Shown: piece by piece, positions 3,592 to 62,752 of the stretch
Layout: each line of letters starts with the position of its first letter
Numbering within the stretch: position 1 is the stretch's first letter
Sequence record: MT968995.1
Reading direction: 5' to 3' (one strand)
Length of the DNA: 64,000 bases
Origin: Escherichia phage vB_EcoM_WL-3
The notes under the pieces: model-generated
Databases searched by the model: none
The model's input: only the letters and a program-made list of their open reading frames with translations
Told to the model about the DNA's origin: nothing
Position numbers and translations under genes: made by a program

Positions 3592-3660
3592 GTTATCGAG
3601 TTGGTGCCATTATATACATCGTTTTCTGATTGTGTTTTATTTGCTTTCAAAATGAAGAAA

Positions 3661-15589: not shown

Positions 15590-15593
15590 CAAT

Positions 15594-15620
15594 GGGGACC
15601 GAAAGGTCCCCATGTTTTTA
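15594..15620 (+). terminator. Rho-independent terminator after gene 54
   Basis: ggggacc-gaaa-ggtcccc hairpin followed by TTTTT. Confidence 0.6.
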
Positions 15621-15908: not shown

Positions 15909-15916
15909 TTTGTGTT

Positions 15917-15969
15917 CCTCATGTTATGTCAGTAAGATTATTATAACACAATACGAGGGACTTGTAAAC
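15917..15969 (-). promoter_or_regulatory. T4-type early promoter cassette upstream of alt.-3
   Basis: On the - strand: GTTTAC (-35) then TTATAAT (-10); near-identical copy at 31688-31740 upstream of alc. Confidence 0.5.
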
Positions 15970-18026
15970 TACATCTTGAACTTTTTAGACATTCCGTTGA
16001 TGTTAACCAAAGAAGCTAAGATTTGAGAAACTTCGTTTTCCTCTTCTTTTGATTCTTCTACAAGGAATTGATTAAACCCAGCCATTGGACGAACTTCACC
16101 AGTTTCCATCAGATGATCGCCATCATATACCGATTCTTCTAATTGTTCAGAAGGAGGAACGATTGTACCTTCGATTAAATACTTGTTATAAGCAGTTTCT
16201 TTCATCATGTACGTGCTCACTTTATTAATCTTCAGCAAAATTCCACGTGGTAAAATAACTTCAGCTTCTGACGTAAATCCTGATAAATGACCCGGAACGA
16301 TAACTTTGATTCGCTCAGCTCCTTTAATTACCATACCCACGCTAGTTTCAGCATCTTCATTCGCATAAGCAGAATGACTGCCCATATGCATCAAATCTTC
16401 TGCGTCAATTGAACCTTCTCCTTCACCAGAAAATACTGCACTGGAATCATCTAGAGCCATATAGTTTTTACCATACTCACCGAAGATATTTGGTTTAAGC
16501 GATGTGGATACGAAGTTCTTAAAATAGAACATTTTATTTTCAATATTATGACGTAAAGTTTTAAAGGTAACTTCTTGGCCACGGTAAAGCGTAGTTCCTG
16601 GAGGAAGAACTGATCCTTTGGCAAAAGCAGAATCCATCGTCTCGATGTGTTTAATAGCTCGTTCCATATATTCTTCACGAGTAGAATCCGGTTTACCTAA
16701 AAGGAACGAGTTCATTTCAACATATGAATCTGCGCAATAATCTTCAATTACATCAGACTCAGCCCGAGTTAATCCTTTTGGGGGTACTTCAGTACTTGCA
16801 TATTCATACGCTTGAGAAGCAGACTCATTAATCAATTTATAAATGCCATTCATGACAAATTGAATAATAGCTACCTTTTCATCTGGCGTGGCTTTAGAAC
16901 CTTTAACTAAATCATTGACAATTTTCTTAATAACATCAAAGCTATTAGAAATATTAATGTCAGCAAGATCGCTTAAAATTTTATCAGTTTTATAATCAAA
17001 AAATTCTTTATTCTTTAAATATTCTTGAGAACCTTGATGTGTTATATCGCTCTGCAGTCTGATAGACGGATCACGTAAACGTGCATGGGCCAATGCAATA
17101 TGATTTCGGAAGCTTTTTAGTTCATAATCACTAGATTTAAAACGAGAAGCACTCCTCATACCACCGATAGCTCCTTTGCCGAAGTTTGAACCAATCTGAA
17201 TAACGCCAGAGTTCATTGGTCCTTCTGCTTTATATACCGGAACTTTAGATTCAAACTCTTGATATTTCTTAGCAGCGAAACTATCGCCCTGAAGTGAAGC
17301 ATCGACAGTAGAGTATTGAGCTTGTGCTGCTAATCGACGACTAATTTTAGTTTTCTGAATAACAGCTTGATCCGTGCGCTTATCATTTTCTAAAGCAATA
17401 GAAGCGGCAACAGCAACAGCTTTAGGAACAGCATTACCTGTTTTAACGTCTACATAAACATCACCAACCTTTGATTCAACTTTTGTGAATAACTCAGTTG
17501 AAATAGGAGGTACACCTGGAATGTCTTCTAAATTGGCATTTTTACGGTAAACCATAATATATGCATACTTTTTATCGTAATCCCAGATTTCCTTTAAAAG
17601 AACATATCGACCTGCTCCTTTAGTACGTACTAAACGGTCAGCAATAACTTGAATTTGTCGAGCTGCGCCATTTGTTTTACTCTTTAGTACGCGGAACAGG
17701 CATGCGTCAATTTTATACTGTTTCATTGTTTGAAGAGCAGTATCAAAAACCGCATTAATAACACCAATTGGATTTCCACCCAAGTTTTTAAGTTTAACTA
17801 ATGATAGTTTCTCATTGACACCTATCATTACGATATGCATCATTTTATCGCCTGGCTTAACGTTTTTATTTGTATCACCGCCAGAGGTGTATGTGCAAAA
17901 TCTAAATCCAGGAAGCACGCTTTCTTCACCGGCTTGAATAGCAAAAATTTGAGGTATTTTATGCTTAGGATTTAAGTTAACAACCGGCGCCGAAGCGCCG
18001 TCAAATAATTCTGTAATAAGTTCCAT
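15969..18026 (-). CDS. Alt-family ADP-ribosyltransferase paralog
   Basis: 685-aa ORF; N-terminus MELITELFD shared with Alt; C-terminal ART motifs YRGQ, FVSTSL, EAEVILP. Confidence 0.8.
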   Translation of the reverse strand: MELITELFDGASAPVVNLNPKHKIPQIFAIQAGEESVLPGFRFCTYTSGGDTNKNVKPGDKMMHIVMIGVNEKLSLVKLKNLGGNPIGVINAVFDTALQTMKQYKIDACLFRVLKSKTNGAARQIQVIADRLVRTKGAGRYVLLKEIWDYDKKYAYIMVYRKNANLEDIPGVPPISTELFTKVESKVGDVYVDVKTGNAVPKAVAVAASIALENDKRTDQAVIQKTKISRRLAAQAQYSTVDASLQGDSFAAKKYQEFESKVPVYKAEGPMNSGVIQIGSNFGKGAIGGMRSASRFKSSDYELKSFRNHIALAHARLRDPSIRLQSDITHQGSQEYLKNKEFFDYKTDKILSDLADINISNSFDVIKKIVNDLVKGSKATPDEKVAIIQFVMNGIYKLINESASQAYEYASTEVPPKGLTRAESDVIEDYCADSYVEMNSFLLGKPDSTREEYMERAIKHIETMDSAFAKGSVLPPGTTLYRGQEVTFKTLRHNIENKMFYFKNFVSTSLKPNIFGEYGKNYMALDDSSAVFSGEGEGSIDAEDLMHMGSHSAYANEDAETSVGMVIKGAERIKVIVPGHLSGFTSEAEVILPRGILLKINKVSTYMMKETAYNKYLIEGTIVPPSEQLEESVYDGDHLMETGEVRPMAGFNQFLVEESKEEENEVSQILASLVNINGMSKKFKM

Positions 18027-18029
18027 GAT

Positions 18030-20126
18030 TTATCCTTGAACGAACTTGTAAGGCATGTTTGTAATATCTATGCAAGACGCAATAATTCCGAGAGATGATT
18101 CTGCTTTCTGTTTAACATTTGATGAAACAAATGATGCAAAGTCAACTCTGTCTTCTATTTCAATATCACCTGTCATTGCAACTACTTCACCAGTTTCCAT
18201 TAAATGGTCTCCATCATAAATTACTGATTCGGTGAGTTCTTCTGTAGTCATAACTTCAGATTGAATGAGTTTTGTATTATTAGATGTTGTTCCGTCATTA
18301 TTAGAAGCATCAGTTATTTTATTAACTTTGACCATCAATCCGCGCGGTAGAATAACTTCAGCTTCTGTTGCTATTCCGAGACTTCCTGGATATACAACAT
18401 TAACTTTATGAGCTCCATCAATTGCCCATCCTATTTGAACTTTAACGTATTCAGGATTTTCTTTATACGCTCTTATTTCGTTTGGATTAATAGTTATTCC
18501 TTCTTCATTTTTATCAACTGTCAATTCATTACGAGCTTCTGGTTCTAAAAGACCAATACCAGCATGTGTAATTCCAAAACGTCCAAAAATGATAGGAGTT
18601 AAAGAAGTAGATACAAAATTTCTGAAATAGAACACTTTATTTTTAACTAGTGCTTCGTATATAGGAGCAGTCATACTTTGAGCACGATAAACTGTAATGC
18701 CTTCTGGTATACGGTCACCATTTTCAAAAGCTGAATCTAAGTTATTTATAGCAGATTCAATTTCTTTTTCACTCATTACATCATATCGTTCTGGATTGTA
18801 ACGACCCAAAAGAAGATTATTGATGTCAGTATATCCTGAACCACAATACTCTCTAATGCCGCGCTTTTGTGATGGAGTATATTTAGAACCATCACGGGCA
18901 ATAGTAATATCAATCATTGGACCTGCACCAATTCCAGAAAAACTATAAATCATTCGTTTGAGGAATTTAGTTTTTGCTGCGTTCCAGGAATTTTTAGTTA
19001 TTTCTTCCCAGACTTCATCTGGCTGTCCTTTACGGGTTTTATTATGTTTATCAAGCCAAGTATCTTTATATTCTTCAAAGAATTTATTAACAGCTGCTGC
19101 GTATTTCTCTAAACATTTTATTGAAGTAGTTGGTTCATTTTTAATCGCATTAAGAATTACATCTTTAATTTTTTCAGAAACTTCATTAACCTCACTTTTT
19201 GAAAAGAATTTATAGTCATAGTGAAGTTCATCTGCGGTTCCTTCGGCAATGATTTTTGCTGCCTTAGTTTTAGAAGCTAATGAATTAATTCCAAGCTTCA
19301 TTTCTTCTGCTTCGGGAATTAAAGGAGCTGTAGCAGGTTTATTGAAATTAGCTGCAGTAGATTCATACTTCTGGAATAATTCGCTTTCAAATCTAGAAGA
19401 TTCTAATGATTGACTTTGCGCAATTGCTCTACGGGAAATTTTAACTTTAACAATAACAGCTTGGTCAGAACGTTTATCATTTTCTTGTGCAATAGATGCT
19501 GCAATTGCCTCATTTTTAGTTACTTGAGCTCCAGTATCTTTATTGATATAAACATCGCCGACTTTCGATTCAACTTTAGTAAAGAGCTCGGTACTAATTT
19601 CCGGAACTCCTGGAATGTCTTCTAGTGATACATTTTTGCGATGTATAAGAATATATGCATACTTTTTATCGTAATCCCAGAGTTCCTTAAGAAGGACGTA
19701 TCTGCCACCTGAACGACTACGAATAAGTCTATCAGCAATAACTTGAATTTGTCGAGCTTGACCAGCAGTTTTAGACTTAAGAATACGGAGCATACAGGCA
19801 TCAATTTTATACTGACGCATCGTCTGCATTGCAACAGTAAAAACTGAATTGATATAATTAATTGGGCTTGGACCGAGACCTTTTAATTTAGCAATTGAAC
19901 CTTTAGCAGTTAATGTAAAAGGAACAATATGCATCATTTTATCGCCCATTTTTAAATCGCGATTAGTATCACCTCCAGATGTATAGGTACATAAACGAAA
20001 GCCTGGTTGTTCAATTGCGTCATCGACATGAACTGAAAAAATTTGTGGTATTTTCTTCTTTGGATTTAAGTTTGTAATCGGAAGAGTAGTATCTTCGTCA
20101 AATAATTCTGTAATGAGTTCCATCAT
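18030..20126 (-). CDS. alt: Alt, ADP-ribosyltransferase packaged in the head
   Basis: 698-aa ORF (alternative ATG at 20123); motifs YRAQ, FVSTSL, EAEVILP; T4 position next to gene 30. Confidence 0.85.
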   Translation of the reverse strand: MMELITELFDEDTTLPITNLNPKKKIPQIFSVHVDDAIEQPGFRLCTYTSGGDTNRDLKMGDKMMHIVPFTLTAKGSIAKLKGLGPSPINYINSVFTVAMQTMRQYKIDACMLRILKSKTAGQARQIQVIADRLIRSRSGGRYVLLKELWDYDKKYAYILIHRKNVSLEDIPGVPEISTELFTKVESKVGDVYINKDTGAQVTKNEAIAASIAQENDKRSDQAVIVKVKISRRAIAQSQSLESSRFESELFQKYESTAANFNKPATAPLIPEAEEMKLGINSLASKTKAAKIIAEGTADELHYDYKFFSKSEVNEVSEKIKDVILNAIKNEPTTSIKCLEKYAAAVNKFFEEYKDTWLDKHNKTRKGQPDEVWEEITKNSWNAAKTKFLKRMIYSFSGIGAGPMIDITIARDGSKYTPSQKRGIREYCGSGYTDINNLLLGRYNPERYDVMSEKEIESAINNLDSAFENGDRIPEGITVYRAQSMTAPIYEALVKNKVFYFRNFVSTSLTPIIFGRFGITHAGIGLLEPEARNELTVDKNEEGITINPNEIRAYKENPEYVKVQIGWAIDGAHKVNVVYPGSLGIATEAEVILPRGLMVKVNKITDASNNDGTTSNNTKLIQSEVMTTEELTESVIYDGDHLMETGEVVAMTGDIEIEDRVDFASFVSSNVKQKAESSLGIIASCIDITNMPYKFVQG

Positions 20127-24483: not shown

Positions 24484-24538
24484 GATGTTTAATTGCGGTA
24501 CAGGTATATAATATCATATCCTGTACCAAAGTAAACAA

Positions 24539-24871: not shown

Positions 24872-24981
24872 TTTATTCTCCTTTGTTTGTGTAAGATAAT
24901 ACTATCACAAAGGAACCATACTGTAAACAACTTTGTGCAATCTTTGGAAAATAAAAAAGGACTCCCGAAGGAGTCCTCAAC

Positions 24982-30835: not shown

Positions 30836-31185
30836 TTAGAAAGGTCCTGGATGTCTTCTGCGAACTTGTTGAAGGAGTTGTTGATTTGTTTTTCAACCAA
30901 TCCTGGCTTACGAGCCACCACATCCGCCTTCTTTGCATCTTTGCGCAGTTTTTCATTTTCACGCTCAATAGCAGCAATCGCCTCACGATTTTTATTATTC
31001 ATCGCATCAATATAATTATACTGAATTCGCAAATTATTTAATGCTAAGGCGTTTTCATTGGCCGTTTTTGTAATTTCTACAACAGACGTTTCTAATCTTT
31101 CAATTTTATTTTTTAAAATTAAAGAAGTTCCGCCTAATGCAATTACAATTAATAGCAAACCTGCTGTCGTATTACTTAATTGCAT
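30832..31185 (-). CDS. Membrane-anchored coiled-coil protein, probable i-spanin (Rz equivalent)
   Basis: 117-aa ORF; N-terminal transmembrane segment LLLIVIALGGTSLIL then coiled-coil region. Confidence 0.6.
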   Translation of the reverse strand: MQLSNTTAGLLLIVIALGGTSLILKNKIERLETSVVEITKTANENALALNNLRIQYNYIDAMNNKNREAIAAIERENEKLRKDAKKADVVARKPGLVEKQINNSFNKFAEDIQDLSK

Positions 31186-31679
31186 AAAGTTTTAATAACC
31201 TCTATAATATCGTCTTGAGAAAGACCGTTAATTAAAATATGATGTTCAGCCGGAGATTTAGAAATTTTAAAGCATGCCTCAACATCTTCTGCCATATCCG
31301 ATGCGCTACGATTTGGATTACTAATTCCAAGACGATGTTTTCCCGTTAAAGGATTAACGATGATATAGCATTTACAGTTGTTAATATGAACATTAGGTTG
31401 AGTCTGATTAATGAACACATCGCAATCATATTTCGCAAGCTGATTTTCTAAAAAGACTTTCATCTCCTCAACCGCATCAGGAAGCATATCACGGGCTTGC
31501 TCAAGACGACGATTTCGATATTCTTTAATGGTCGTTTTCCGCTTGACTTGCTTAGCTAAATCTTTCTTAAGATCGGTGATATATCCAACTCGACGATTTC
31601 CTTTAAATACAGAAATCCCATCTGTAGTATCACCGTATGCTTCAACGACCATTTCAGTAGTAATAAGCTGCAAATCCAT
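31176..31679 (-). CDS. alc: Alc, inhibitor of host transcription
   Basis: 167 aa from the second ATG; T4 size and position. Confidence 0.8.
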   Translation of the reverse strand: MDLQLITTEMVVEAYGDTTDGISVFKGNRRVGYITDLKKDLAKQVKRKTTIKEYRNRRLEQARDMLPDAVEEMKVFLENQLAKYDCDVFINQTQPNVHINNCKCYIIVNPLTGKHRLGISNPNRSASDMAEDVEACFKISKSPAEHHILINGLSQDDIIEVIKTLCN

Positions 31680-31687
31680 CATAAAGT

Positions 31688-31740
31688 CCTCATGTTATGT
31701 CAGTAAGACTACTATAACACAACACGAGGGACTTGTAAAC
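31688..31740 (-). promoter_or_regulatory. Early promoter cassette upstream of alc (paralogous to 15917-15969)
   Basis: About 53 bp roughly 90% identical to the cassette upstream of alt.-3; GTTTAC and TATAGTAGT elements. Confidence 0.5.
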
Positions 31741-31743
31741 AGC

Positions 31744-33331
<1,588 letters not shown>

Positions 33332-41125: not shown

Positions 41126-41179
41126 TTTATTCTCCTTAGTTGATAGGGTAATAGTATCACACTACTACCCTACTGTAAA

Positions 41180-41560
41180 CTACTTTTTGAAAGTTTTTCG
41201 CAAAAGTTCAATGATTTCATCTACATTGTTTTCGTCTACAATGCAATGAATTTTTGTTACGCCAGAAATCTTGTCTTCGACTTCATCTTCTTCAGAAGTC
41301 GGTTCTTTATACTCGCGGAAACAATGAAATTCGTCTTCACAAATTTCTAAAAGTCTATCTTTGAGGTAAAAATGTTTTCCATTTGCGCATTCAATGTGTT
41401 TTACTGCTTTATATCCATTAGCGACAGAAACTTCTTTAACTTCAAACCATCCGCCATTATCTCGAATAGCTTTAACTATTGATGAATTAGAACGTGGGCT
41501 ATAATTAATAAATGTATCAATAAGTCTTGGAACAAGTTCATACTTTCTACCAGTATACAT
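41180..41560 (-). CDS. Hypothetical Cys/His-containing protein
   Basis: 126-aa ORF preceded by hairpin-GAGGAAAA-ATG. Confidence 0.5.
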   Translation of the reverse strand: MYTGRKYELVPRLIDTFINYSPRSNSSIVKAIRDNGGWFEVKEVSVANGYKAVKHIECANGKHFYLKDRLLEICEDEFHCFREYKEPTSEEDEVEDKISGVTKIHCIVDENNVDEIIELLRKTFKK

Positions 41561-45254: not shown

Positions 45255-48200
45255 ATGGCCGAGATTAAAAGAAAGTTCAGAGCAGAAGACGGTCTGGACG
45301 CAGGTGGCGATAAAATAATCAACGTAGCTTTAGCTGATCGTACCGTAGGAACTGACGGTGTTAACGTTGATTACTTAATTCAAGAAAACACAGTTCAACA
45401 ATATGATCCAACTCGTGGATATTTAAAAGATTTTGTAATCATTTATAATAATCGTTTTTGGGCAGCAACGGATAATATTCCAAAACCTGCTGGAAGTTTT
45501 AATAGAATTCGTTGGAAAGCATTACGTACTGATGCCGTATATACAACCGTATCATCTGGACCATATCAATTAAAATCCGGAGAAGCAATTTCAGTAGATA
45601 CATCAGTTGGTAATGACATTGAGTTTAATTTACCACCTTCTCCGCTTGATGGAGAAACCGTAATAATTCAAGATATTGGTGGAAAACCTGGTATAAATCA
45701 GGTTAAAATAAATTCTTCAAATCAGAGTATTGTTAATTTTAGAGGTGAACAAGTACGTTCAGTTCTAATGACTCATCCAAAGTCACAGATGATATTCATT
45801 TTTAATAATCGTTTGTGGCAAATGTATGCTGCTGATTATAGCAGAGAAGCTGCGATTGTTACTCCATCAACTGCATATCAAGCACAATCTAATGATTTTA
45901 TCGTGCGTAGATTTACTTCCGCTGCGCCGATTAATATTAAACTTCCGAGATTTGCTAATCATGGCGATATTATTAATTCGTGCGTAGATTTACTTCCGCT
46001 GCGCCGATTAATATTAAACTTCCGAGATTTGCTAATCATGGCGATATTATTAATTTCGTTGATTTAGATAAATTAAATCCACTTTATCATACAATTGTCA
46101 CAACATATGATGAAACAACTTCAGTACAAGAAGTTGGAACTCATTCTATTGAAGGCCGTACATCAATTGACGGTTTCTTGATGTTTGATGATAATGAAAA
46201 ATTATGGAGACTGTTTGACGGGGATAGTAAAGCACGTTTACGCATTATAACAACTAATTCTAATATTCGTCCAAATGAAGAAGTTATGGTATTTGGCGCG
46301 AATAACGGAACAGCCCAAACAATTGAACTTCAACTTCCAACCGATATTTCCATTGGTGATACTGTTAAAATTTCCATGAATTACATGAGAAAAGGACAAA
46401 CAGTTAAAATCAAAGCTGCCGGTGAAGATAAAATTGCTTCTTCAGTTCAATTGCTGCAATTCCCAAAACGCTCAGAATATCCACCACCTGAAGCTGAATG
46501 GGTGACTGTCCAAGAATTAGTTTTCAATGGTGAAACTAATTATGTTCCGGTTTTACAACTTGCTTATATAGAAGATTCTGACGGAAAATACTGGGTTGTA
46601 CAACAAAACGTTCCAACGGTTGAAAGAGTCGATTCTTTAAATAATTCTACTAGAGCAAGATTAGGCGTAATAGCTTTAGCTACACAAGCTCAAGCTAACG
46701 TCGATTTAGAAAATTCTCCGCAAAAAGAATTAGCAATTACACCAGAAACATTAGCTAACCGTACTGCTACAGAAACTCGTAGAGGTATCGCAAGAATAGC
46801 AACTACTGCTCAAGTGAATCAGAACACCACATTCTCTTTTGCTGATGACCTTATCATCACTCCTAAAAAGCTGAATGAAAGAACTGCTACAGAAACTCGT
46901 AGAGGTGTAGCTGAAATTGCTACGCAGCAGGAAACTAATACAGGTACTGATGATACTACAATCATCACTCCTAAAAAGCTTCAAGCTCGACAAGGTTCTG
47001 AATCATTATCTGGTATTGTAACCTTTGTATCTACTGCGGGAGCTACTCCAGCTTCTAGTCGCGAATTAAATGGTACAAATGTTTATAATAAAAACACTAA
47101 TAATTTAGTTGTTTCGCCTAAAGCTTTGGATCAGTATAAAGCTACTCCAACACAACAAGGTGCAGTAATTTTAGCAGTTGAAAGTGAAGTAATTGCTGGA
47201 CAAAGCCAAGAAGGATGGGCAAATGCGGTTGTAACGCCAGAAACGTTACATAAAAAGACATCAACTGATGGAAGAATTGGTTTAATTGAGATTGCTACGC
47301 AAAGTGAAGTTAATACAGGAACTGATTATACTCGCGCAGTCACTCCTAAAACTTTAAATGACCGTAAAGCAACTGAAAGTTTAACTGGTATAGCTGAAAT
47401 TGCTACGCAAGTTGAATTCGACGCAGGCGTCGACGATACTCGTATCTCTACACCATTAAAAATTAAAACCAGATTTAATAGTACTGATCGTACTTCTGTT
47501 GTTGCTCTGTCTGGATTAGTTGAATCAGGAACTCTCTGGGACCATTATACCCTTAATATTCTTGAAGCAAATGAGACACAACGTGGTACACTTCGTGTAG
47601 CTACACAAGTTGAAGCTGCTGCAGGAACATTGGATAATGTTCTAATAACTCCTAAAAAGCTTTTAGGTACTAAATCTACTGAAGCGCAGGAAGGTGTTAT
47701 TAAAGTTGCAACTCGGTCTGAAACTGTAGCTGGAACGTCAGCAAATACTGCTGTATCTCCAAAAAATTTAAAATGGATTGTGCAGAGTGAACCTACTTGG
47801 GCAGCTACTACTGCGATAAGAGGTTTTGTTAAAACCTCATCCGGTTCAATTACATTCGTTGGTAATGATACAGCTGGTTCTACGCAGGACTTAGAACTAT
47901 ATGAGAAAAATAACTATGCAGTATCACCATATGAATTAAACCGCGTATTAGCAAATTATTTGCCGTTAAAAGCAAAAGCTGTAGATAGTAATTTATTAGA
48001 TGGTTTAGATTCACTCCAGTTCATTCGTAGGGATATTGCGCAGACGGTTAATGGTTCACTAACCTTAACACAACAAACGAATCTGAGTGCCCCTCTTGTA
48101 TCATCTAGTACTGCTACGTTTGGTGGATCAGTTTCGGCAAATAGTACATTAACTATTTCTAATACTGGAACGGCAACTCGTCTTATTTTTGAAAAAGGGC

Positions 48201-49204
48201 CTCAAACTGGGACGAACCCAGCTCAAACGATGACAGTCAGAGTGTGGGGAAATCAATTCAGCAGTGAATCGGACACAACACGTTCTACTGTATTTGAAGT
48301 TAGTGATGAAACGTCTAGTCACTTTTATTCTCAGCGCAATAAAGCTGGTAATATAACATTTAATATCAATGGTACAGTAACACCGATAAATGTGAATGCT
48401 TCAGGAACATTGAATGCGAATGGCGTTGCAACATTCGGTAGTTCAGTTACTGCTAATGGCGAATTTATCAGTAAATCGTCGAATGCTTTTAGAGCAATAA
48501 ATGGTGATTATGGATTCTTTATTCGTAATGATGGTGCTAACACCTATTTTATGCTTACTGCATCTGGTGATCAGACCGGTGGATTTAATGGATTACGTCC
48601 TTTATCTATTAATAATGCATCTGGTCAAGTAACGATTGGTGAAAGCTTAATCATTGCCAAAGGTGCTACTATAAGTTCAGGTGGTTTAACTGTTAACTCG
48701 AGAATTCGTTCTCAGGGTACTAAAACCTCTGATTTATATACCCGTGCGCCAACATCTGATACTGTAGGATTCTGGTCAATCGATATTAATGATTCAGCCA
48801 CTTATAACCAGTTCCCGGGTTATTTTAAAATGGTTGAAAAAACTAATGAAGTGACTGGACTTCCATACTTAGAACGTGGCGAAGAAGTTAAATCTCCCGG
48901 TACATTGACTCAGTTTGGTAACACACTTGATTCGCTTTACCAAGATTGGATTACTTATCCAACTACCCCAGAAGCGCGCACCACTCGCTGGACACGCACA
49001 TGGCAGAAAACCAAAAACTCTTGGTCAAGTTTTGTTCAGGTATTTGATGGGGGTAACCCTCCTCAACCTTCGGATATAGGAGCGATCCCATCTGATAACG
49101 GAATAATAGGTAATCTTACTATTCGTGATTTCTTGCGAATTGGTAATGTTCGCATTATTCCTGACCCAGTGAATAAAACTGTTAAATTTGAGTGGATTGA
49201 ATAA
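45255..49204 (+). pseudogene. 34: Gene 34 long tail fibre proximal subunit, interrupted by a frameshifting 77-bp tandem duplication
   Basis: Two ORFs (45255-46067 and 45980-49204) share RFTSAAPINIKLPRFANHGDIIN; deleting one 77-bp copy gives a single 3873-nt ORF. Confidence 0.85.
45899..46055 (+). repeat. Perfect tandem direct repeat, 2 copies of 77 bp
   Basis: Sequence at 45901-45977 is identical to 45978-46054; period 77 is not a multiple of 3. Confidence 0.95.
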
Positions 49205-58246: not shown

Positions 58247-58278
58247 TTTCTAATCTCCGTAATTCTGTATCAGTAGTT

Positions 58279-58368
58279 GATAGTTGTATAGTACCACAGT
58301 ATGCTTTGGTTGTAAACCGTTTTGTGAAAAATTTTTGAAATAAAAAAGGGAGAGCCTCGGCTCTCCCT
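58279..58368 (-). promoter_or_regulatory. Terminator hairpin plus early promoter cassette upstream of motA (PeSL-like)
   Basis: On the - strand: hairpin gggagagccgaggctctccc, TTTTTT, GTTTAC, TACTATAC; homologous to 41870-41958. Confidence 0.55.
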
Positions 58369-61389: not shown

Positions 61390-61457
61390 CATTTTCTGTT
61401 CCTCCGTAGTTGATAGGGTAATAATACCACAGAGGAACAGTCTTGTAAACAACTTTT

Positions 61458-61556
61458 TTAAAAATATTCGTAATAAATGTGAATACCAATCACTACTGCC
61501 GAAACTTGCGCAACCCACCATGCACAAGCAATAAGTACAGAATTCAAAATTTTCAT
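61458..61556 (-). CDS. Small hydrophobic peptide
   Basis: 32-aa ORF found by hand; ATGA overlap with the upstream ORF. Confidence 0.3.
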   Translation of the reverse strand: MKILNSVLIACAWWVAQVSAVVIGIHIYYEYF

Positions 61557-62114: not shown

Positions 62115-62194
62115 TTTATTCTCCAAATCCGTATCAGTTGATAGTTGTATAGTACCACAGTCCTTGTGGTTTGTAAACCGTTTTGTGAAATTTT

Positions 62195-62752
62195 TTAAAT
62201 GGAAAGATACCATCCGTTGTAGTTGCTTTTTCTTACAACCTTACGAAGGTCTTCTCTATCACCGATGAACTTCGGAGTGTACTGGATGACACCTGGATGA
62301 ATTTCTTTAGTGTTGAATATAATTATACAGTCAGCGACTTGATGATTCAGAATGGGCCCTAGATTTATTCCAGAACCGTATGGATACTCCCCGCTGCATC
62401 CGGTTGTTACCGAAATCCAACGTGAGTCAGTTTGATGTGTTTTGACTTCTACACGAAGCCCACAGTATTTTGGATGCGCCAATACATCCCATGCGTATGT
62501 ATACGGGTCATTAACATCCTCTTGGCCTTTGTTAACATACCCGCTCAGCCAATCTGCTACAAAAAACTCTGCATACACAGCGATACGGCATCTTTCGATA
62601 ACTTCTGCTTTATCCTGATTTGGATTTTGTTTTAGAGAGTATCTTGCTGTATCAGCAATTTTGACCTTCATTTCACTAGTCAAGTCACTGTTCGATAGGG
62701 TAAATGTCGGAATCTGAAATAGTCTCTGTAAACCTGGATTCGTTTTCTGCAT
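62195..62752 (-). CDS. denB: Endonuclease IV
   Basis: 185-aa ORF; T4 size and position adjacent to rIIB. Confidence 0.8.
   Translation of the reverse strand: MQKTNPGLQRLFQIPTFTLSNSDLTSEMKVKIADTARYSLKQNPNQDKAEVIERCRIAVYAEFFVADWLSGYVNKGQEDVNDPYTYAWDVLAHPKYCGLRVEVKTHQTDSRWISVTTGCSGEYPYGSGINLGPILNHQVADCIIIFNTKEIHPGVIQYTPKFIGDREDLRKVVRKSNYNGWYLSI

Follow-up and report, generated by a model that had tools for sequence, protein, structure and literature searches.

The window, a stretch of 64,000 nucleotides from Escherichia phage vB_EcoM_WL-3 (MT968995.1), comes from a Tequatrovirus closely related to T4, with 97-100% nucleotide identity to many T4-like phages of E. coli, Shigella and Yersinia. On its minus strand, two short intergenic regions carry nearly the same sequence, referred to here as the cassette. 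Copy A lies between the gene for an Alt-like protein of 685 aa and alt.-3, and the TAG stop codon of the Alt-like gene shares its G with the GTTTAC of the cassette. Copy B lies upstream of alc and starts 4 nt past the rnlA stop codon. The alc reading frame opens with two in-frame ATGs, at 31682 and 31679, the second of which is the start in the T4 annotation. A terminator scan found no terminator between the Alt-like gene and copy A, and none between rnlA and copy B. A sequence-only reading had named the two downstream genes alt.-3 and alc, and their products are indeed 97.9% and 97.6% identical to T4 Alt.-3 and T4 Alc, respectively. T4 itself carries the cassette at both loci, its alc copy being the same as copy B and its alt.-3 copy one base off. 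The positions of all these features are listed in Table 1.

Table 1. Positions in the window of the two cassette copies, their promoter elements and predicted hairpins, and the adjoining genes.
Feature	Position	Strand	Evidence
Cassette copy A (alt.-3 copy), -35 box to Shine-Dalgarno (SD)	15916..15969	-	94% over 54 nt to copy B
-35 element GTTTACA, copy A; first base is the G of the upstream TAG	15963..15969	-	sequence, promoter scan
Extended -10 TGTTATAAT, copy A	15940..15948	-	promoter scan, 11/12 with TG
Predicted RNA hairpin, copy A, weakened	15914..15961	-	-15 to -17 kcal/mol, z -2.7 to -3.4
alt.-3 coding sequence, 96 aa	15618..15908	-	ORF list; 97.9% identical to T4 Alt.-3
Upstream gene of copy A: second full-length Alt-like ADP-ribosyltransferase paralog, 685 aa	15969..18026	-	ORF list
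Cassette copy B (alc copy)	31687..31740	-	same sequence as T4 alc copy
-35 element GTTTACA, copy B; 4 nt past rnlA stop	31734..31740	-	sequence
Extended -10 TGTTATAGT, copy B	31711..31719	-	promoter scan, 10/12 with TG
Predicted RNA hairpin, copy B	31684..31734	-	RNA folding; 22 bp, one bulge
alc coding sequence	31176..31682	-	ORF list; 97.6% identical to T4 Alc
Upstream gene of copy B: rnlA (RNA ligase 1)	31744..32868	-	ORF list; T4 annotation

The surroundings of copy A have further features of their own. Two Alt-like paralogs stand in tandem on the minus strand (15969-18026, 685 aa, and 18030-20126, 698 aa), both full-length. T4 alt.-1 and alt.-2 align, with a 9-nt overlap, to two segments of the downstream paralog (nt 1-348 and nt 2039-2126), and it follows that T4 lost about 1.69 kb of this paralog by a short-homology deletion. 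The endpoint of that deletion lies 10-20 nt upstream of copy A. On the other side of alt.-3, between this gene and the convergent gene 54, a GC-rich hairpin of 9 perfect base pairs with a T-run on each strand (15592-15613) looks like a bidirectional terminator; similar hairpins of the GGGGCCGAAGCCCC type recur at 3655, 20156, 24076, 62814 and 63043.

By direct reading and pairwise alignment, 15917-15969 and 31688-31740 run collinearly and agree at 50 of their 53 positions. When the next base, the A of GAGGA, is counted, the repeat unit becomes 54 nt at 94% identity, with a spacing of 15,771 in the repeat search. On the coding minus strand, copy A reads GTTTACAAGTCCCTCGTATTGTGTTATAATAATCTTACTGACATAACATGAGG and copy B reads GTTTACAAGTCCCTCGTGTTGTGTTATAGTAGTCTTACTGACATAACATGAGG. 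The three differences are T/C on the plus strand, with A in copy A and G in copy B on the coding strand. The near-identity announced by the sequence-only reading was therefore reproduced by the alignment it had proposed, as was its consensus string with three T/C sites, while its count of about five differences was slightly too high. The flanks of the two copies are unrelated, and identity breaks off sharply at either end. A degenerate 53-mer, searched with up to three mismatches, matched exactly two sites in the window, against none expected from 100 shuffles. When seven GTTTAC-type early-promoter candidates on the same strand were aligned on their -35 boxes, other pairs shared only 17-31 of 53 positions, so the match between copies A and B goes beyond mere promoter consensus. 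Convergence of strong T4 early promoters and ribosome-binding sites on one extended consensus, without common origin, could appeal to a T4 early-promoter consensus that reaches well past the hexamers (PMC2988021) and to a looser promoter family present in the window at 61-75% identity, but it is effectively refuted by the alignment, the 53-mer scan and the promoter-pair comparison, together with the identity of the unconstrained spacer and leader, the sharp boundaries and the existence of 53/53 identical copies in several genomes.

Both copies consist of GTTTACA, 17 nt, TGn, TATAAT or TATAGT and, last, about 25 nt of leader ending in the SD GAGGA, which is spaced 7 nt from the ATG. The promoter consensus scan scored TTTACA-17-TATAAT (15968-15940, minus strand) at 11/12 with TG in copy A and TTTACA-17-TATAGT (31739-31711, minus strand) at 10/12 with TG in copy B, which upholds the GTTTAC, TATAAT-like -10 and leader ending in GAGGA and ATG that had been read from the letters. 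Both copies score as strong sigma-70 promoters, and from these elements we infer that they are T4-type sigma-70 early promoters with an extended -10, active at these sites. Transcripts are predicted to start near A15933 in copy A, 7 nt downstream of the -10 box, and near A31704 in copy B, about 7 nt after it. The copies share with the T4 early promoters (UP/-35/TGn/-10 'uber'; PMC2988021) the GTTTACA, the 17-nt spacer, the TGn, the near-consensus -10 and the adjoining early gene. Unlike what is seen here, however, promoter function needs neither an identical spacer and leader at two loci nor complementarity between spacer and leader.

In T4, alt.-3 and alc are both early at the RNA and protein levels, the RNA of alt.-1/alt.-2, directly upstream of alt.-3, has a 'middle' onset, and the RnlA protein is late (PMC9697503 supplements). 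The shared early timing of the two genes fits the probable co-regulation suggested beforehand. A literature search found no genome-wide T4 dataset of transcription start sites, and alc is absent from the content of the DksA RNA-seq paper.

The complementarity between spacer and leader gives the alc cassette a stable predicted RNA hairpin (-24.4 to -27.3 kcal/mol, z -5.4 to -5.5), equalled in stability by none of 200 shuffles. Its 5' arm (31716-31734), which includes AAGTCCCTCG, is the promoter spacer, and the -10 box sits at the top. Its 3' arm (31684-31701) is the leader, which holds the SD GAGGA (31687-31691) and runs 3 nt past the repeat. The stem can be written as AAGUCC-C-UCGUGUUGUGUU..AGUA / UACU-GACAUAACAUGA-GGACUU. 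At its base, GGACUU pairs with AAGUCC, and the lowest three base pairs use the CUU just beyond the repeat. The AAG partner of this CUU lies inside the repeat, and its counterpart at alt.-3 is unpaired: AAGTCC matches GGACTT at alc only. The SD is fully paired in the predicted fold of the alc read-through RNA. RNA begun after the -10 box is without significant structure (-5.0 kcal/mol, z -0.4); the start is predicted at the first base of the 3' arm, and RNA initiated at the promoter would lack the 5' arm. The helix contains three G-U pairs and folds at -24.4 kcal/mol in the sense strand versus -15.4 in the antisense, about 9 kcal/mol weaker. Because these G-U pairs make the sense strand the more stable one, a function at the level of the sense RNA is favoured over a DNA or protein site.

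The hairpin of copy A, though weakened, keeps its SD (GAGGA, 15916-15920) paired. It is less stable than the T4 alt.-3 hairpin (-15 to -17 versus -23 kcal/mol) because two of the three G>A changes private to copy A break pairs, and one of these pair-breaking changes converts TATAGT to TATAAT. As the hairpin is decaying at alt.-3 in the window, gating may not be under selection there. The scan for intrinsic terminators, defined by a G+C-rich stem and a T/U run, found none at either cassette, where the tails are UAUGAUGG and ACACAAAAUG, and an identity as intrinsic terminator was rejected for both. No match at gathering score was obtained across the whole window with the Rfam 15 covariance models. 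The sole match to the hairpin was a chance one to a miRNA precursor (E 0.65), and assignment to a known RNA family was likewise rejected.

A blastn search of 50,697 phage records with the cassette matched 997 places in 499 records, all from close relatives of T4. Among these records, each complete Tequatrovirus genome carries two copies, the exceptions being incomplete records. Scans of IMG/VR and of metagenomes added further genomes, again only T4-group phages with the cassette at alc and alt.-3. The blastn search, a 16-mer scan of IMG/VR and a gapped-pattern scan of metagenome contigs all failed to reveal a third locus; the remaining 16-mer and pattern matches were unrelated chance hits, and a third or mobile copy was rejected. 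The search of related genomes that had been suggested with the first observation thus returned the same pair across the T4 group, and the pair is fixed across the whole genus rather than peculiar to this genome. The commonest alt.-3 and alc copies are 53/53 identical, as is the pair found within several genomes, and paralogs within a genome differ at 0-3 positions, about as much as orthologs across the genus. In the T4 group, alc copies vary at unpaired positions only. The alt.-3 copies form a stepwise G>A series in which pairs are eroded and the -10 box is improved, from TATAGTAG through TATAGTAA and TATAATAA to the window variant with an added CGTATT.

Outside the T4 group, the architecture at alc recurs with other sequence in Gelderlandvirus, Karamvirus, Jiaodavirus, Bragavirus, Dhakavirus and Winklervirus, where the spacer between rnlA and alc measures 57-65 bp. 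In these six genera, an anti-SD arm comes directly after GTTTACA, the loop holds the -10 box, and GGAG or GAGG is present in the 3' arm. Their stems comprise 9-13 perfect base pairs (-17.6 to -25.4 kcal/mol, z -3.6 to -6.4). When whole alc cassettes from the different genera were aligned with MAFFT, the stems fell out of register; an alignment anchored on the arms was used instead, in which the arms were found by folding each sequence and registered by hand, with the 3' arm constrained to be the SD. With the stems of seven genera registered on the -35 box and the SD, all 63 of 63 cells were paired and both-sided changes were present in 7 of 9 pairs. The covariation score was 0.825, versus 0.267 for shuffled alignments, and was reached by none of 500 shuffles, although the signal is partly built in because the arms were registered by hand and the 3' arm was constrained to the SD. 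None of the seven genera has a T-run after the alc stem, the tails being A-rich or purine-rich. Stop codons of the upstream gene lie 0-7 nt before GTTTACA in all lineages examined.

The promoter-in-hairpin design is not universal at alc. The Mosig-like lineage (NHEP11, JK45) has a spacer hairpin only, the hairpin of Providencia phage PSTCR6 surrounds the -10 box and stops short of the SD, Gaprivervirus VR7 has an extra ORF at the locus, and Acinetobacter, Aeromonas and Cronobacter phages show no such hairpin there. The extra ORF of VR7, located between rnlA and alc (1260-1493 of the VR7 segment), encodes 77 aa annotated as Alc-like. Ahead of this ORF come a terminator-like GC hairpin and another hairpin, GGUUCCAUCA...UGAUGAGGACC, in which the ORF's own SD is paired.

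At alt.-3, six other lineages have an early promoter of their own, of another type, with a small hairpin confined to the spacer. In these lineages the alt stop codon already abuts or overlaps GTTTACA, and ACATGAGGA closes the leader in four of them, ATGAGGA or GTGAGGA in the other two. The long SD-pairing hairpin therefore appears to be ancestral at alc and foreign at alt.-3, which would make alc the donor. The simplest history would be a replacement of the alt.-3 promoter by the alc version on the Tequatrovirus stem lineage. In the Tequatrovirus ancestor, the native alt.-3 promoter core would have given way to a segment comprising the alc spacer, -10 box and leader, brought in either by gene conversion or by recombination at short homologies, with one junction in GTTTACA(A) and the other in (A)CATGAGGA at the SD, both of which the two loci share. 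The comparative data thus agree with the duplication or recombination of a shared unit proposed from the window alone, and point to alt.-3 as the recipient.

Shigella phage JK45 (NC_054940), although labelled Tequatrovirus jaykay, behaves as a lineage apart from the T4 group. Its Alt.-3 is only 51.5% identical to that of the window, and JK45 lacks the T4-group cassette, having alc and alt.-3 promoters with small spacer hairpins instead. We also considered, and rejected, that the Mosig-like lineage had undergone a reciprocal exchange: the JK45 alc and alt.-3 promoters agree at 49 of 62 positions and other JK45 early-promoter pairs at 43-48 of 62, and no exchange is claimed since the former pair is no outlier among early-promoter pairs.

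The reading we consider probable is that the alc cassette is a translational gate with its promoter inside the hairpin, which hides the SD on read-through RNA and was later copied to alt.-3 in the Tequatrovirus ancestor. Since only 0-4 nt, and no terminator, separate the upstream genes from the cassettes, RNA from upstream must read into them. Such read-through RNA would contain both arms, fold, hide the SD and be translationally silent. RNA from the embedded promoter would start at the first base of the 3' arm, lack the 5' arm and remain accessible to ribosomes. Alc, and Alt.-3 in T4-group phages, would then be made essentially only from their own immediate-early transcripts, and their synthesis would end when early promoters are shut off, despite continued transcription of rnlA and of alt, a virion protein gene. 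The folding models suggest translational gating at both cassettes, and the T4 timing of alc, alt.-3, alt.-1/alt.-2 and RnlA fits it. A more ambitious version, to which we would give slightly less than an even chance, holds that the alc gate has been kept by compensatory evolution in at least seven T-even-like genera as a mirror of the late-promoter gates, and that the whole gate moved through about 8-10 bp of flanking homology to alt.-3, whose product is capable of evolving into a blocker of the CmdTAC defence system, bringing both genes into a single early-only programme.

Structurally, the cassette qualifies as one of the PeSLs (promoter-early stem-loops; Arbiol et al. 2010, PMC2839356; Comeau et al. 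2014, PMC4122927), an already described class. Like them, it is compact and intergenic, with an A/T-rich upstream region and a sigma-70-like early promoter, for which the PST/T4 pair has the consensus TTTACW-N17-TAYWAT (PMC4122927). It also has a stem-loop overlapping the spacer and -10 box, followed by the SD and start codon, and is repeated within the genome. PeSLs are, moreover, proposed recombination substrates that move regulatory modules, as would be the case here. In contrast to PeSLs in general, this sequence is present in only two copies per genome, which are 94-100% alike, a far higher likeness; the copies lie in conserved synteny and not beside ORFan indels; and their stem is without terminator features, its conserved trait being the pairing of the SD.

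This kinship raises the alternative that the stem-loop is the terminator or attenuator half of a PeSL, which would stop or dampen transcription from rnlA or alt before the embedded promoter restarts it, the SD pairing being incidental. T4-type PeSL stems overlapping the -10 box or spacer have been described, and in a reporter, a stem of RB49/phi1 brought about termination (PMC2839356); PST/T4 PeSLs have also been reported (PMC4122927), and the window's early promoters at 24536 and 28416 have hairpins that enclose the -10 box only. However, a T-run follows the stem in none of the seven genera, the terminator scan is empty at both cassettes, the T4-group stem is rich in AU and GU pairs, and the trait conserved across genera, SD pairing, is one that a terminator does not need. 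We therefore regard attenuation as unlikely.

A marginally less probable alternative is translational coupling, in which the SD stays closed on polycistronic RNA unless a ribosome on the upstream gene melts the hairpin, so that output is tied to the upstream gene rather than abolished. It would suit the stop codons found 0-7 nt before GTTTACA in all lineages examined and the lack of a terminator between the genes. The upstream stop codon lies 10-14 nt before the stem base, and a ribosome terminating there might partly open the hairpin. This distance is, however, at or beyond such a ribosome's reach, the 22-bp T4-group stem would stay largely closed, and in T4 RnlA protein is late whereas Alc is early (PMC9697503 supplements). 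Much more improbable is a role of the inverted repeat around the -10 box as a DNA site common to both genes, either a cruciform or an operator for a dimeric regulator that shuts off early promoters, which alc and alt.-3 would have in common because both answer to that regulator. The palindrome does flank the -10 box, and the shut-off of T4 early promoters is incompletely understood (PMC2988021, PMC3014915), but the arms differ between genera while their complementarity is kept, the signature of a nucleic-acid helix and not of a protein site, and the three G-U pairs make the helix strand- and RNA-specific (-24.4 kcal/mol sense versus -15.4 antisense).

The proposed gate has its closest functional relatives in T4 e, soc, 49 and I-TevI, where an SD-sequestering hairpin contains an internal promoter (PMC3014915). 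In those genes, RNA initiated upstream pairs the SD and/or the AUG, and pairing of the SD is likewise predicted at alc and alt.-3. The promoter likewise lies in the DNA of the 5' strand of the helix, and its own transcript lacks that strand and is translatable. Their internal promoter, however, is late (TATAAATA) and the silent RNA early, whereas the promoter embedded here is an early sigma-70 one, and because of this the temporal logic would be reversed, with translation early and silence later. The cassette thus looks as if it works like this family without being a strict member of it, as its promoter is not a late one. Among the sequestered sites given in the 2010 review of post-transcriptional control in T4, alc does not appear (PMC3014915), and neither alc nor alt.-3 is mentioned in the main text of the PeSL papers (PMC2839356, PMC4122927). 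No description of the alc/alt.-3 identity or of the alc hairpin was found in the searchable literature, of which older print compilations and the main T4 genome review were not part. The modest novelty here is the temporal twist of an early promoter placed in an SD-sequestering hairpin; the kinds themselves are known.

Other early promoters of the window carry related structures. The one at 61450 (minus strand), upstream of the T4 ndd.4 homolog, is built in the same way: after GTTTACA comes a spacer arm, CUGUUCCUCUGUGG, with perfect pairing to the SD-containing CUACGGAGGAACAG (15 bp, -23.2 kcal/mol, z -5.3). The ndd.4/ndd.5 locus is that of a proposed PeSL-mediated exchange between T4 and PST (PMC4122927). 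The promoters at 24536 and 28416 (both minus strand), upstream of the 30.7 and cd.3 homologs, have 11-16-bp hairpins that enclose the -10 box and not the SD, and are of the classic PeSL type; the cd.3 promoter matches T4 'Pe133295'. The early-promoter cassettes at 24880-24951, 41132-41203, 58269-58340, 61402-61473 and 62130-62201 make up a looser family, with 61-75% identity over 72 nt. The cassettes at 41132 and 61402 suggest mosaic promoter modules, because they share a nearly identical -10 box and leader yet differ in their spacers.

The pair at alc and alt.-3 is a clean, datable case in which a complete regulatory module (promoter, leader, ribosome-binding site and RNA gate) appears to have been copied between unlinked genes of a model phage, and it fits the PeSL idea of early-promoter cassettes as recombination-competent units. 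If the gate operates as proposed, it would offer a simple reason why Alc, which terminates host transcription, is made early only while its upstream neighbour is still expressed, and it would extend the T4 logic of a hairpin plus an internal promoter from late to early genes. The two copies are also direct repeats of 53-54 bp, 13-16 kb apart. The minimal homology for T4 recombination reported by Singer et al. in 1982 is said to be close to this length, and the repeats are for that reason a potential source of deletions or duplications over genes 30-31-cd-pseT-alc in engineered or evolving phages.

A repeat of another kind lies in gene 34, which encodes the proximal long-tail-fibre protein. A 77-bp tandem duplication at 45892-46045 (plus strand), with copies 95% identical, breaks the gene into two ORFs that overlap, one of 270 aa (45255-46067) and one of 1074 aa (45980-49204), where T4 has a single gene of 1289 aa. 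It could be a true frameshift mutant, an assembly artefact or an insertion. The duplication is absent from the best-matching database phages, as a 341-nt query across it maps in two pieces onto 264 nt.
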